DNA from: Eledone cirrhosa
Lineage: Eukaryota
DNA: 64,000 nt
Assembly: GCA_964016885.1 (NCBI GenBank)
Contig: OZ024750.1
Location: forward strand, 20,894,001 to 20,958,000
Direction of reading: 5' to 3'
Positions 2,187 to 49,854 of this stretch are shown piece after piece. Under the pieces are notes generated by a model. That model saw nothing but the letters and a program-made list of their open reading frames with translations. It was not told the DNA's origin and searched no databases. Every line of letters starts with the position of its first letter. Positions within the stretch are counted from its first letter, which is position 1. A program made the position numbers and the translations under genes.

Positions 2187-2351
2187 GAACCAGTAAGACC
2201 CCGACAGCTGAGCTCAAGCCGTTTCGACGGCTAACGGCTTGAGCTCAGCTGTCGGGGTCTTACTGGTTCCTATTACCCACTCTACTACCTCAAGTATTGA
2301 GTACTTTGGTGCGTTATGGTCCACCTGGTTCCTTACCACATTTCCTTCGTT
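2187..2351 (+). mobile_element. Fold-back Penelope-like/retrozyme fragment, family A
   Basis: Perfect 37-bp arms 2187-2223/2233-2269, then a tail with ATTGAGTAC (2296-2304). Flanked by (TA)n on both sides. Same family at 8934-9126 and 18851-19007. Confidence 0.8.
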
Positions 2352-2429
2352 ATATATATATATATATACATATATATGTACATATATATATAGATATGTA
2401 CATATATATGTATATATATATGTATATAA

Positions 2430-2960
2430 ACTGGCAACCCCACCAAGGTTTCTTGGTGAGGAGGGTGACTTTGGACATCCTGCAGGACTAAAAACAAAAC
2501 CTGTCATAGGGAAAAGGAGCTCTTAAGAGTCAATGGCCATCCAAAATTACCGGGAGAGATGACCCCTTAGCCTTTGTCAAGGCAGAATTCTAGGAGAAGG
2601 ACAACTCTGATATAACACCTGCAAACCTGATGGTATCCAATGATGTTGACTTGTTCTTCTTTTTGGTAAATATCATCTTGGTTAAGAGAGTGGGACTGGC
2701 TTTGTGCAGTGCCTTTGCTCACTATAAAAGCTTCACGGCACAGGCATTGCTTTATATCTGGAGATCTCTCTGCACTTGTCGTCACATGGTACCATGGGCC
2801 CAGCACTATGTGTCAATATTTGTCACAAGTGTAGTGTTTGTACCAGAGTTTTCAAGTCGCTGGCTGGACTAAAAAGTCACACTCGTTCAGCGCATCGGTA
2901 GGGGTTCTCCTACATTGATATAAAGTAGTGGCCGCTCTCGAAAACGAGTTGGCAGCCACC
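2430..2960. mobile_element. GC-richer insert between TA tracts, possibly an RTE LINE 5' region
   Basis: Contains AGAAGGACAACTCTGATATAAC, resembling RTE 5' UTR sequence. No convincing ORF. Confidence 0.35.
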
Positions 2961-3726
2961 ATATATATACATATATATGTAAATATATATATACATATAT
3001 ATGTACATATATATTTATATATATATATATATATATGTACATATATATGTACATAAATATTTATATACATATGTATATATATATATATATATATATAAAT
3101 ATATATATATATATATATATATATACATATATATGTACATATATATATACACATATATATGTACATATATATATATATATATATATGTATGTATATATAT
3201 ATATATATATATATATATATACACATATATATGTACATATATATATATATATATATATATGTTTGTATATATATATATATATATAGTCACTTATATATTA
3301 TGAAATACTGTTGGCTTCACGCTCACAATAATTTCTATATTTTCATTTATATATATGTATATGTACCATATATACGTATATATTTATATATATATATATA
3401 TATATATATATATATATATATATATATATATATATATATATATATATATATATATATATATAGTCGGTATAAAAGGATGGAATTCACTTCTACCACTCAA
3501 CGTCATGTTAATTCCTAAAAACAATGATGGCATTTTTAGTCCGCTTTCTTCCACTCGAAATTGCCTTGGAAATGTTATCTCTTGAATAATGTTTGCTGTC
3601 TGTATAAATCATGCTTTCTATCGTCATTGAAATACGTATAACGGCTCAATTAATAAAGGACGCTAACATCTTCAACTAGGTATTTTCCTCTGTATATATA
3701 TATATATATATATATATACATATATA

Positions 3727-45438: not shown

Positions 45439-46302
45439 TGTATATATTTTTATTATTTATATAAGAAAAGAAAAAAAAGGACAATAATAAAACTATCTTA
45501 TCGGATATTCAACTTTTATTCTGAATACAAACATTGACAGCTGCTTTAAAATAATATTAAATGACAAAACCTACATTTGTAAACAGAGATGCGAAAATAT
45601 TTTATAGCTTTCTATTTTATCGAAATATATTGATGCCATAAATATTTTATGCAACTCTTAATACAAAAGCTACTCCGTTGAGTGGAAATAGAACTGTTTT
45701 ATATTCATGTGTTTATGATGTTGTTAATACACGGAAATATATTTTAGGTTATAACATGATATTCCTTTATTCTTTTAATGGTTGCGGTTATTATACCACG
45801 GGGAAGCTGGAACACCATCCTTGAAGTATTCAATTGTATCGAACCCAGTATATATTTTGGAAACTGATGCCGCTTTCCTCGGTGTATATTTCGTCTAATG
45901 ATTAAGATAAAGGATATAAGCACATACGTAAAAAACCATCCGCACACTTCTAACGTATATATAATCCGGCTCTTGGTAATATTATATTACACTAGTTGAT
46001 GATATCAGTTTAAGCTCTCAACGCTATTGCGAGAACAGAACTGTTTGTTAACCTAAATTGCAGATCGTATGTATAAAACAAGAAAGAACAACGTTCATTC
46101 TATTCTTATCTTCTACGCTTCTGATGAGCAAATTGGCACCAAATTTTGGCTGATCCTAAATAATTAAAGCTTTGAGCTACCGTAATCGTTTTTGAAACAC
46201 GCGTTACAAGTGACTATATATATATATATATATATATATATATATGGGTGTTAAAGTTTGCTTGAAGCATTGTGAAATGTGTAAAATATGTATATATATA
46301 TA

Positions 46303-46432
46303 CACTAATTCATTCTTCTGAAGAAGCACTAGCGTCCGAAACGTTAACAACGTCTTCCTGGTATTTGAAGCGTTAACCTAATATATTCCTTCCATATACT
46401 GTACCGATTGTTTTTATTTCAGTTTACCGTTT
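46303..46432 (+). mobile_element. Short microsatellite-flanked element with decayed minimal hammerhead
   Basis: TTCTT-CTGAAGA-agcactagcgtcc-GAAA-CG-TT-AACAA (46313-46350). Stems imperfect. Confidence 0.45.
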
Positions 46433-48990
46433 ACACACACGCATATATATATATATATATATATGTGTGTGTGTGTGTGTGTATGTGTGTGTGTGTGTTT
46501 GTGTTTATCAGTGCAGAACCACCTTTAAAAGAGTTAGACCATGACATCAGATGGTACTGGGATGATAGTAGATTATGGCAAAATTATAAAGTCGAGTCAC
46601 GACGGTATTGAGCTTTCAACAGCTAATTCCAGACAGATAAATATATATATACAGAGAGAGAGAGAGAGAGAGAGAGAGTGAGAGAGAGAGAGAGAGAGTG
46701 AGAGAGAGAGAGAGAGAGTGAGAGAGAGAGATTGGAATATATATATATATATATATATATATATATATATATATATAGAGAGAGAGAGAGAGAGAGAGAG
46801 AGAGAGAGAGAGAGAGAGAGAGAGAGAGAGAGAGGGAGGGAGAGAGAGACACAACATAGCTCTTCAAATTCCGTCTACCAAATACCACTCACAGGGTATT
46901 AGGCTCAGTGTTATTGAAGACACTTTCCGAACGTGTCACGTAATGTCAGATGACCCAGAACCACGAGGTGTCAAAGCAAACTTTTCATTGCATACTTAAT
47001 ACTGCGCAACATATTTGATATTTATTTAGCAACACCTTCGTTAATACTAATAATACCAAAACGTAGCAACTTTTAAGAGTATTAAATAAGTTTTATGTAA
47101 TTGGAATTGCGAGCGCGTGATCTTTTGAAAAATGTATATTACCTTTGAGACAATGTCGGAAAATATGTTAATGTTATATGAAACAGCGAATTCTTTTTAA
47201 GTATGTAATGTTGTGGGAACATCTTTTTGTGAGGTTGTTGCAAAAATGCTTAGATGTTCGGATCGTAAAATTTAAACAAATATCATTGGAATATCTTTCA
47301 TGCTATCCTCTCAACAATATTGTACAAGCGTATTGTTATTACCTGCTTACAATGGCATAATGAATATTCACAGATTAATGTTTAATATATAGTATGATGT
47401 ACGTTACATCTTATATTCATATATGTACTCTCAACCCACCGCAGAGATAGTATTATATACTTTAATTTTCGTCTGTTATGAACCATATAGCTGACAATGA
47501 TCTAAAACAGGAACTTTGTACCTGGTCGTTGAATCTGTACAAATAATTAAGCATAAATAGAAAGAAGATGATTGTCTGACCGGACAAAGTGAACTGCTTT
47601 TGTTAGTCTTTCCATTGCTGATTCTATGTGATGGAGTATTTCGTATATGGAAAATACGGGATTTGAACTCTAAATGTACTGAGCCAGATTACGCGCCGCA
47701 TAATATCCTGTCCGGGCATTTAACATTTTCGCTAATCCATCTCTTCTGGTGCTTTATTTATCGACTTTTAACAGATGAAAAACATAATTAAGGTTGCTTG
47801 ATCCAGTTTTCCAGAACATTACAGTAAATGGATGATGATGTGTAGCTAAAATAACCCAAATTTCACCGAATAACTTTGCAGACACGATTCCGGCGCTAAA
47901 CACACGGGACAGTTGTCGGTAGATTTATTCTCCAGTTTCTTGTCAGCGAAATAGAATGATCGACAAAACGTCACACAAATGTTTCTGTATTCCACAGTTA
48001 TGTGTCTGAGAAAGTTAATCCTGATTGTGAAGCAGAGTGATACTGTGTAATAAGACTAACATTTAGAATTAAATGTACGAATATCCTTGTAAGGTAAATG
48101 ACATTCGTTCAAGATGTCTCGAAATCGCAATAATAAACAGATGATCTCATAATCTATGAAGAAACTATATGAAGGAAATTGGTAGAAGAAATTGTATTGA
48201 ACCTTGAGTGGTGAATGATACATATAATTGTTTGACCCACCATTGTAACATACTGTATCACATCGACAGTCACTCAGAGTCATGTTAAGTGTTATGATAG
48301 ACAAATTAATTTTCGTCGTCAATACAGACGGTTGATCCATTATGATAACTCATGGTCTAATCATTAGATTCTAATGTACACTTATTTAAGCGGAGGCGTG
48401 TGATTTGACAAATATTTCGCTGCAACTGATAGTAGGCTGTGATATAACATAGCTACTCAGTAGTAAGCCCATATTACAGTATGTATAGTTCAGTACTGAA
48501 TTATTTGTTCTACTTTTATAATCATCAGTAAGAGAGTAAATTGGATTAGCTTTATGCATCCCCTCTGTCTAATTATTTAATCAATGTATATTAAGAACTA
48601 AGAAGCTCAATCGCTTGGAAGAAATATACAGAAAAAAGACACTGATTATATCCTGATATTCCTAACTAAAAGAGAACAAATAATAGTTTAAATTAAATTA
48701 GATGTTTGCAAAAGAGTGTAAAAAGTATTCAAATACAACCCGAGGAGTGTTAATTCTTTTAGAAATTAGAAACATCGTATATATTTGTTTTTTAAATAAT
48801 ATTATGTCATCAACTAATTTTATATATCACAAACTAAACGGCGGAATGCAGCTTCCATCCCGAACACTATTTTAGTACACGCGCACGCACACACACACAC
48901 ACACACACACACACACACACACACACACACACACACACACACACACATATATATATATATATATATATATATATATATATATATATATAT

Positions 48991-49854
48991 ATCACGATAA
49001 ATTAACGGAGCCATAGGCACTCGCCATTCCCTGTAAATAATTGTTTCTACTTTAGGCACAAGGCCAGCAATTACTCAGTGCATTACTGGTACTTTATTTT
49101 ATCGACCCCGTAAGGATGAAAGGCAAAGTTAACCTCGGCGGGATTTGAACTCAGATCGTAAAGGGACGTAACTATGCTGGAAAGCATGGCGTCCGACCCT
49201 CTACCGATACTGCCAATCCACCGCCATTCCCTGTAAATAATGTGCTCAAAGGAGAAGAAATCCTGAGCTCTTTAAAATACAATATGTTGAAAAGGTAACA
49301 CACCAGAGAGAGATATACAGTGCGCTATCAATAAAATAGGGAAAAAAACCACCAGTGTATGGAATCTATAACCTATGACAGGGAGACTATAGGCAGGATA
49401 ATTAAAAATGTAAATTAAAGCGTAAATGAATACCTCTATAACTATATAACATACGTACAAATCCAAAGAGATGGTTCGCCAGTAATTTGTTGACAGAAAT
49501 GGAATAACCTCGGTTCATCAGCGTGTGTAAGGCTATATATTTCAGACAACACTAAGAGAAATTGAAAAGTGACTATCCACCTACACGTGGGAGAGAGAAG
49601 TCACAGCGTGTTTAAGGGCAGTGAAGCAGTGGCCTCTGAGGGATGAGCTGCTAGAAAGTGCAGCCCAAAACCACTCAGAGAAGTGTGGTCAACCAAACAG
49701 AGAGATAGGAAAGACTGTTGTAAGGAGCGAAATATCACGATAAATTAACGGAGCCATAGGCCCTCGCCTTTCCCTGTAAATAATGTGCTCAACGGAGAAG
49801 AAATCCTATCACTCTGTTTGGTTGAGCACACTTCTCTAAGTGGTTTTGGGCTGC
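48991..49854 (-). mobile_element. Penelope-like/retrozyme element with direct terminal repeat and 5' inversion
   Basis: ATCACGATAAATTAACGGAGCC...GAAATCCT at 48991 (split by a SINE) repeats at 49732-49807. 49804-49854 inverts 49660-49710. Degenerate hammerhead at 49450-49527. Tail has TTGAGCAC. Confidence 0.7.
49038..49225 (-). mobile_element. SINE family 1, young insertion
   Basis: Perfect 20-bp TSD CGCCATTCCCTGTAAATAAT at 49022-49041/49222-49241. The empty-site version is present at about 49765-49790. Confidence 0.95.

Follow-up and report, generated by a model that had tools for sequence, protein, structure and literature searches.

A predicted hairpin beside both insertion ends of Penelope-like elements assigned to the Hydra clade in Eledone cirrhosa

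Why should one short string recur near the 3′ ends of many different repeats? The question is raised by a stretch of 64,000 nucleotides (nt) from the 3.0-Gb genome of Eledone cirrhosa (assembly GCA_964016885.1, contig OZ024750.1, positions 20,894,001 to 20,958,000), here called the window, which has a G+C content of 31% and is rich in (TA)n runs. A preliminary description listed 13 sites of a TGAGYAC-like motif, said to lie at a fixed distance from the 3′ end of unrelated families and suggested to act in recognition by reverse transcriptase (RT), in 3′-end formation or as a promoter. All 13 strings are present at, or a few bases from, the positions given for them. The motif is genuine at nine of the sites, in six families; three (6467, 10353 and 4245) were wrongly included, and the site at 4440, in an old family, is counted with neither group. 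We find that the motif is half of a conserved base-paired element. The repeats that carry it are, with the clade judged by protein motifs, the 3′ ends of Penelope-like elements (PLEs) of the Hydra clade, and the predicted hairpin probably docks the RT-endonuclease of these elements, so that copying would start 6–11 nt 5′ of it.

The motif, GAGY-N-C-W, forms the 3′ strand of a predicted bulged hairpin of which RCTC is the 5′ strand. The upper stem, which is variable, is closed by the pairing of RCTC with GAGY, and N-C-W follows GAGY; a 2-nt bulge is present in 13 of the 15 hairpins that were parsed (from 23 sites), and the spacers between the paired strands range from 8 to 106 nt. The ACTCT that was observed to precede the motif frequently is its pairing partner. 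Occurrence was analyzed in 99 stretches (990 kb, 4 of them adjoining the window) containing 1203 (TA)n flanks, merged into 682 clusters. At the level of copies, GAGYRC lies at 40–75 nt in 76 of the 1203 flanks, compared with 18.3 ± 3.8 in shuffled sequence. A search for fold-backs that was blind to the motif gave 171 calls, of which 80 had a complex tail of 20–250 nt, falling into 32 clusters. The hairpin descriptor is found in the tails of 8 of these clusters (31 of the 80 copies; one cluster is probably a chance match). By comparison, 300 shuffles gave 0.23 ± 0.48 clusters, and the opposite strand gave 1. The descriptor is likewise found in 8 of 22 clusters from held-out stretches (60, fetched after the idea arose), where shuffling gave 0.14. 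Scanned regardless of fold-backs, the descriptor has 107 matches, 50 of them 40–79 nt before (TA)n, and shuffled DNA has 49 matches in all. The outer pair also co-varies. With no filter for pairing, both strands were seen at 16 of 26 sites, with A-T at 8, G-C at 8 and a crossed combination at 0 (p = 1.6e-4), one of the 16 being a spurious 125-nt pairing.

Where does the hairpin lie with respect to the insertion? Most of the listed sites share a layout of (TA)n, a long fold-back, a unique tail and (TA)n again. The turning point of the fold-back is variable, but two positions are fixed, namely site A, where the inverted arm starts, and site B, where the tail ends, as seen at 30 family 1 loci and as many of family 6. 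Each insertion end is UA-rich and joins (TA)n. An inverted 5′-truncated copy with a one-sided tail is the layout described for PLEs (PMC8557442). Here an inverted copy adjoins the 5′-truncated copies as in PLEs, the insertions lie in (TA)n as in the Hydra clade, and the one-sided tail is optional, again as in PLEs: ends at A and ends at B both occur in each of the 7 families tested. In tandem units a hairpin follows the internal end (site A), and in most cases another follows the terminal end (site B). The modal offsets from the end to RCTC in the seven families are 8, 6, 6, 6, 7, 6 and 11 nt at site A, and 6, 9, 9, 6, 8, 6 and 7 nt at site B; the outlying 11 nt is site A of the 49242 family (families without a number are named from their listed site). 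It is therefore the distance from insertion end to RCTC that is tight. The distance from motif to 3′ end, thought earlier to be fixed, is specific to the family and varies between 42 and 74 nt, being simply the remainder of the hairpin spacing. That spacing is 67–89 nt in the seven families, and the length of the tail is equal to it because insertions end 6–11 nt 5′ of either hairpin.

Only hairpin 1 was visible in the preliminary description, because hairpin 2 lies just past the end of every stump. We first met hairpin 2 just after site B in read-through copies of the 34139 and 49242 families, and it was then predicted for three others, families 1, 2 and 6. In family 1 the tail end followed by RCTC has 375 matches and the control 0, and 18 of 20 loci inspected continue into the region of hairpin 2, mostly on into a Hydra open reading frame (ORF). 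Hairpin 2 of this family is the G-C version and hairpin 1 the A-U version. In addition, hairpin 2 occurs in the 10470 and 4245 families. It lies ~20–70 nt before the ATG, and the pseudo-long terminal repeats (pLTRs) of PLEs contain promoter-like motifs (PMC3846280), both of which would suit a promoter or translation element near the start of the ORF, with hairpin 1 as its duplicate and the ends set in some other way. We regard this as very unlikely, since the 540-nt tandem element retains both hairpins although it is non-coding, and since, from family to family, the ends follow the position of each hairpin to within a few nt; for a promoter, moreover, strand pairing over spacers of 8–106 nt fits poorly.

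The arms of single insertions provide further information. Diagnostic bases are shared by the two arms in 24 of 30 insertions, where 6.1 would be expected at random, which points to a single source transcript for both arms. In these 30 insertions the inverted arm is the longer in 7 and the forward arm in 5. Since either arm can be the longer, two primings are a better fit than snap-back, although the pattern could have been blurred by later deletions. The likeness of the arms would also be compatible with a site acting at the DNA level, recognized by the GIY-YIG endonuclease either for self-targeting or for a nick at site A that resolves a self-primed fold-back intermediate. According to PMC11167929, which cites the work, the D. 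virilis endonuclease required the tail to be present in DNA, and self-priming has been proposed for inverted junctions (PMC3846280). Yet B ends occur in stumps that lack hairpin 2, so that the hairpin must act on the template; the inverted arm exceeds the forward arm in those 7 of 30; and pairing held over such variable spacers is unusual for a duplex site. A DNA-level role thus seems to us quite unlikely. Processing of the RNA is a stronger candidate, if still an unlikely one. Here the hairpin would direct cleavage or 3′-end formation 6–11 nt upstream, by a host nuclease, a protein of the element or a self-cleaving fold, with ordinary priming from the resulting ends. The same genomic ends would be expected, and the structure and its strand bias suit an RNA element. 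However, priming by the Poseidon PLE is internal and takes place on RNA that has not been processed (PMC11167929), and a cut at A would remove the tail from that molecule, yet matching arms with A and B ends share single insertions. Moreover, the arms of family 1 run across the hammerhead cut site, so that the templates were uncut there. Among the functions suggested earlier, RT recognition is the best reading, and 3′-end formation remains a live rival.

Hammerhead cores are recognizable by eye in several of the families. They are canonical in the 10470, 18707 and 49242 families, and variant in the 34139 family and in family 1, where a U3-A8 pair replaces C3-G8. The arms of family 1 (2187–2269 and 8936–9045 in the window; locus L312) stop mostly 52–62 nt 5′ of site A. 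This position is the base of the hammerhead's long stem II, and reverse transcription may stall at that stem. At ~46303–46400 on the minus strand there is a canonical type I core, again by eye, in the remnant of another PLE. Rfam at its gathering score found no family in the window, hammerhead included; in E-value mode there were 267 matches, and the 150 listed are look-alikes of microsatellites or palindromes with no hammerhead among them.

To which elements do the stumps belong? The families had been regarded as unrelated, but five of those with the motif, together with the 4245 family, are linked to ORFs of Hydra PLEs, and are thus relatives. The parent of the 34139 family is a young element, of which the family represents the 3′ end; its 713-amino-acid frame contains RWR, DKT, CxCX5C, CxxC and CxH. 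Family 1 exists as 3.53-kb tandem units with an open frame of 784 residues bearing the full set of Hydra-clade marks, and family 2 has all of these but CxH in one frame. Both the 713- and 784-residue frames contain YRDD and a C-terminal endonuclease region, identified by eye, as expected for the RT and GIY-YIG-type endonuclease of a PLE. The 3.53-kb units are arranged head to tail, the tail being followed by the start of the ORF, which is the tandem or pLTR arrangement of PLEs. Families 6, 18707 and 4245 adjoin Hydra-like frames with 33–47% identity by tblastn, and in loci L074 and L145 the 18707 family sequence follows a Hydra ORF directly. For the 10470 and 49242 families, 19 loci each gave no link to an ORF and contain only non-coding tandem or stump copies; both families are assigned to Hydra by their shared hairpins and layout. 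Naiad, our first guess, was discarded as the endonuclease is C-terminal and not N-terminal to the RT, and Neptune was discarded for the families with the motif as the CX2-5CxxC linker before GIY-YIG is absent. That linker is present in the parents of the 10353 site and of the fold-back at 39107–39552, both of which are Neptune-clade. The top 30 loci with a Pfam GIY-YIG match are of Neptune type or other, with their own tails lacking the motif. Loci L344 and L345 (G000:C1, near 91.48 and 437.2 Mb) each consist of four of the 3.53-kb Hydra units, arranged head to tail and with their 784-residue frames open, and all 129 of 129 scored matches of the 713-amino-acid family have 96–100% identity. From the open frames and this identity, the Hydra elements are young and may be active.

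If the hairpin docks the RT-endonuclease, the layout could be generated as follows. The PLE protein, probably a dimer, would bind the hairpins of a read-through tandem transcript and nick both strands of (TA)n. The two 3′ ends of the target would pair with the UA-rich flanks and prime at A and B. The two cDNAs would terminate independently of each other, and their head-to-head joining would produce a fold-back with a one-sided tail whose length would be the hairpin spacing. A stronger form of the proposal is that the Hydra tail is the gap between two copies of a portable docking hairpin, both gripped by an RT-endonuclease dimer that primes both target strands 6–11 nt 5′ of each. Any RNA with such a pair, for example the 540-nt non-coding tandem, could then be written into (TA)n. 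On the sequence comparisons made here we judge the chances of this form to be about even.

How general is the hairpin? It is visible by eye in four of six published Hydra consensus sequences (PMC8557442 File S7), from a coral, a sea cucumber (twice) and a copepod. In Hydra-2_Amil and Hydra-2_Ajap it is at the 3′ end; in Hydra-1_Ajap it occurs twice, in tandem, before the ATG; and Hydra-1_Crog has it at the 5′ end and shows one more compensatory change. The presence in other phyla bears on the last alternative, chance matches of a short degenerate motif. Three of the 13 listed sites are wrong and one is counted neither way, and the linear motif fails a positional test at the level of clusters (below). 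Against these stand the enrichment of the structure, the held-out test, the co-variation, the successful prediction of a second copy and the examples from other phyla, and chance is hardly credible as an explanation of the whole.

A number of observations nevertheless weigh against the docking hairpin or the assignment of its carriers. The positional enrichment of the bare motif, by which the earlier proposal was to be judged, disappears when copies are merged (15 of 75 at 40–59 nt, p = 0.11, 682 clusters), and the strict 7-mer gives 4 of 17 (p = 0.22). The window and the first 39 stretches were the material from which the descriptor was built. The p-value for the 2 × 2 comparison of co-variation is optimistic because the families share ancestry and are not independent. 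When 14 sequences were folded by energy, 4 of them not of Hydra type, the proposed lower stem appeared in only 3 of the 10 Hydra-type tails, with z from −2.1 to +1.0; thus the hairpin would need protein to hold it. In family 2 the offsets at site A are spread from 6 to 17 nt, and hairpin 2 is only a minimal 4-bp variant (133 matches). Hairpin 2 of family 6 is degenerate (4 matches, 2 of them real), and in the 18707 family the one copy that reads through has no recognizable hairpin 2. No clear hairpin is seen in the other two of the six consensus sequences, Hydra-1_Amil, which stops short, and Hydra-1_Obim. Lastly, the clade assignment is by motifs, and Pfam gave no match for the 784-residue frame.

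The elements resemble the Hydra clade of PMC8557442 in their C-terminal endonuclease ORF with RW[K/R], DKT, CxCX5C, CxxC and CxH, as well as in the (TA)n target, partial tandems, inverted 5′-truncated copy, putative hammerhead upstream of the end and optional tail. They differ in that the tails are 67–89 nt (136 and 160 nt in two more families), compared with the 30–40 bp given there for PLEs, and the units are 3.2–3.5 kb (3.53 kb in family 1), where that paper describes a tendency of Hydra elements to be generally <3 kb. The parts of the paper used here do not describe a tail hairpin, though it is present in the paper's own consensus sequences, and the supplement of Craig 2021 (PMC8557442), which includes one figure page without text, nowhere uses the word 'hairpin' in its text. 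In the open-access literature that we searched we found no description of a tail hairpin; Repbase's 21 Hydra families and bioRxiv supplements lie outside that scope, and may bear on both generality and novelty. We therefore regard the hairpin as a new cis-element within a known clade, the kind of element being unchanged.

The closest experimental system is that of Poseidon PAc (Frangieh et al. 2024, PMC11167929). In vitro this PLE cuts both strands and primes at two internal sites that bound the tail; ~55–60 nt of RNA 3′ of the starts is required, cleavage by the hammerhead is dispensable and a dimer is predicted. The two starts bounding the tail, the requirement for RNA 3′ of them and the dispensable hammerhead cleavage are all points of likeness. 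However, Poseidon belongs to another clade, its starts lie within the ORF, in an AC-rich stem loop that has no homology to the target, whereas the Hydra elements here have starts before the ATG, at UA-rich flanks able to pair with (TA)n. As far as that paper was drawn on here, the protein-binding element is not mapped, and we see no sequence motif common to Poseidon PAc and the Hydra elements. The choice of two internal priming sites and the reason for the tail are stated to be open in the portion of PMC8557442 cited here, and PMC11167929 answers both only in part. An element that is small, co-varies, apparently extends across the clade and keeps a fixed offset from both ends can be tested directly by mutation, and this genome contains young intact tandem copies suitable for the purpose. 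If the proposal is right, the many short unlabelled fold-back repeats and their non-coding parasites could be classified by the hairpin irrespective of their sequence, and the hairpin would be a candidate for the minimal signal that a template needs in retrotransposon-based insertion of genes into (TA)n.

The 49242 family, a non-coding tandem with a hammerhead-like core, resembles the non-LTR (long terminal repeat) retrozymes (PMC7229834; bioRxiv 10.64898/2026.07.22.740005), and is apparently moved by PLE proteins. It has both hairpins in common with the Hydra elements, whereas the retrozyme papers, in the parts consulted, name the ribozyme only; a likely cis signal is thereby named. Neptune-clade tails in the same genome share the fold-back and tail in (TA)n and a similar 4-mer 8–10 nt after site A, but are 33–60 nt long, and the GAGY closing strand is absent in 4 of 4. 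In these tails (10330–10402 and, on the minus strand, 39107–39146; loci L111, L131, L147 and L148) the 4-mer is followed by GTGT, with a small hairpin in two of the families. The Neptune motif is possibly the counterpart of the Hydra element. Loci L064 and L085 and four further clusters are other fold-back families, with tails of 37–60 nt that lack the motif.

In the window, the copies are 85–99% identical to their parent loci for the main stumps and ~72% for two old ones. Family 1 accounts for the listed sites 2296, 9071 and 18952, in each of which the first G of the motif is 52 nt from the next (TA)n. Its stump at 2187–2350 (plus strand; fold-back 2187–2269, tail 2270–2350) is 99% identical to the ORF-bearing tandem locus L345, with hairpin 1 formed by a 5′ strand at 2279–2282 and a 3′ strand, the listed motif, at 2299–2305. 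The second, at 8936–9125 (plus), has its fold-back at 8936–9045, a tail to 9125 and hairpin strands at 9054–9057 and 9074–9080; in the older stump at 18851–19006 (plus) the strands at 18935–18938 and 18955–18961 enclose a decayed upper stem. The sequence at 11315–11500 (minus) is a 3′ untranslated region (UTR) of family 1. Sites 6991 and 29392 are ~70–74% alike and make up family 2, at 49 and 45 nt, respectively, from (TA)n. The stump at 6833–7042 (plus; fold-back 6833–6961, tail to 7042; 99% to the ORF-bearing L347) has hairpin strands at 6979–6982 and 6994–7000, and the old family-2-like stump at 29354–29502 (minus) keeps the 3′ strand at 29392–29398 and has lost the 5′ strand.

The four remaining genuine sites are in different families. 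The 10470 stump (10423–10699, minus; fold-back 10499–10699 and tail; 53 nt) has the G-C version of the hairpin, with strands at 10489–10492 and 10469–10475, and the canonical hammerhead core, by eye, in its arm. The 18707 stump (18515–18756, plus; fold-back 18515–18686 and tail; 48 nt) has strands at 18693–18696 and 18709–18715. The 34139 stump, of the young 713-amino-acid family (33968–34191, plus; fold-back 33968–34090, 100-nt tail; 51 nt; 94% to L167), has a 5′ strand at 34099–34102, with one change in this copy, and a 3′ strand at 34141–34147. The non-coding ~540-nt tandem element of the 49242 family (48989–49807, minus; 92% to L288) contains the hammerhead-like core and both hairpins, hairpin 1 having strands at 49265–49268 and 49241–49247. 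Here the motif is 255 nt from (TA)n because a short interspersed element (SINE), at 49037–49228 with a 20-nt target duplication, sits inside the tail; without it the distance is ~56 nt. The SINE is thus younger than the PLE insertion.

The sites not accepted are of several kinds. The 6467 string (51 nt from (TA)n) is in the wrong register, the true motif of family 6 lying 7 nt further 3′. This Hydra stump (6422–6779, minus; related locus L320) has its 5′ strand at 6482–6485 and the true 3′ strand, decayed here, at 6459–6465. The 10353 string (48 nt) is in a Neptune-clade 3′ UTR and tail (9841–10402, plus; 93% to L131), where it has no paired 3′ strand. The 4245 string (39 nt) lies at 4225–4285 (plus), at the distal end of a 136-nt tail of a Hydra family whose hairpin lies further upstream and is missing here. 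The same family is represented at 30213–31387 (minus) by a fragment of Hydra endonuclease (31099–31386) with 3′ UTR, and by further pieces at 3695–4310 and 7043–7224. The site at 4440 is in an old repeat (4330–4505, plus), with a motif-like string 64 nt before (TA)n and no fold-back; the family has 40 other matches at 72–80% identity and no copy among the loci collected.

One (TA)n array is often common to different PLE stumps, and immediately 5′ of the first family 1 stump there is a 1.27-kb degenerate (TA)n array with higher-order units (916–2186). More fold-backs, with no tail identified, are found at 45259–45438 and 59301–59376. No tRNA genes were found in the window. The ORF-like region at 7214–8900 (minus) is a broken apurinic-endonuclease region of a long interspersed element, unrelated to the motif. 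At 11743–12778 there are two direct copies of 427 nt (11747–12173 and 12342–12768), 99.5% identical, which are probably a partial tandem of a PLE; related sequence lies downstream of a GIY-YIG match in L125. An abundant SINE-like family of 190 nt has more than a dozen copies in the window, among them 5345–5550, 9650–9843, 36381–36530, 36845–37030, 37845–38460, 42159–42340, 44252–44371, 45074–45261, 49877–50054 and the one at 49037–49228 noted above, with three in tandem at 40272–40867. We take its core to resemble the Deu, Nin and Meta SINE domains.

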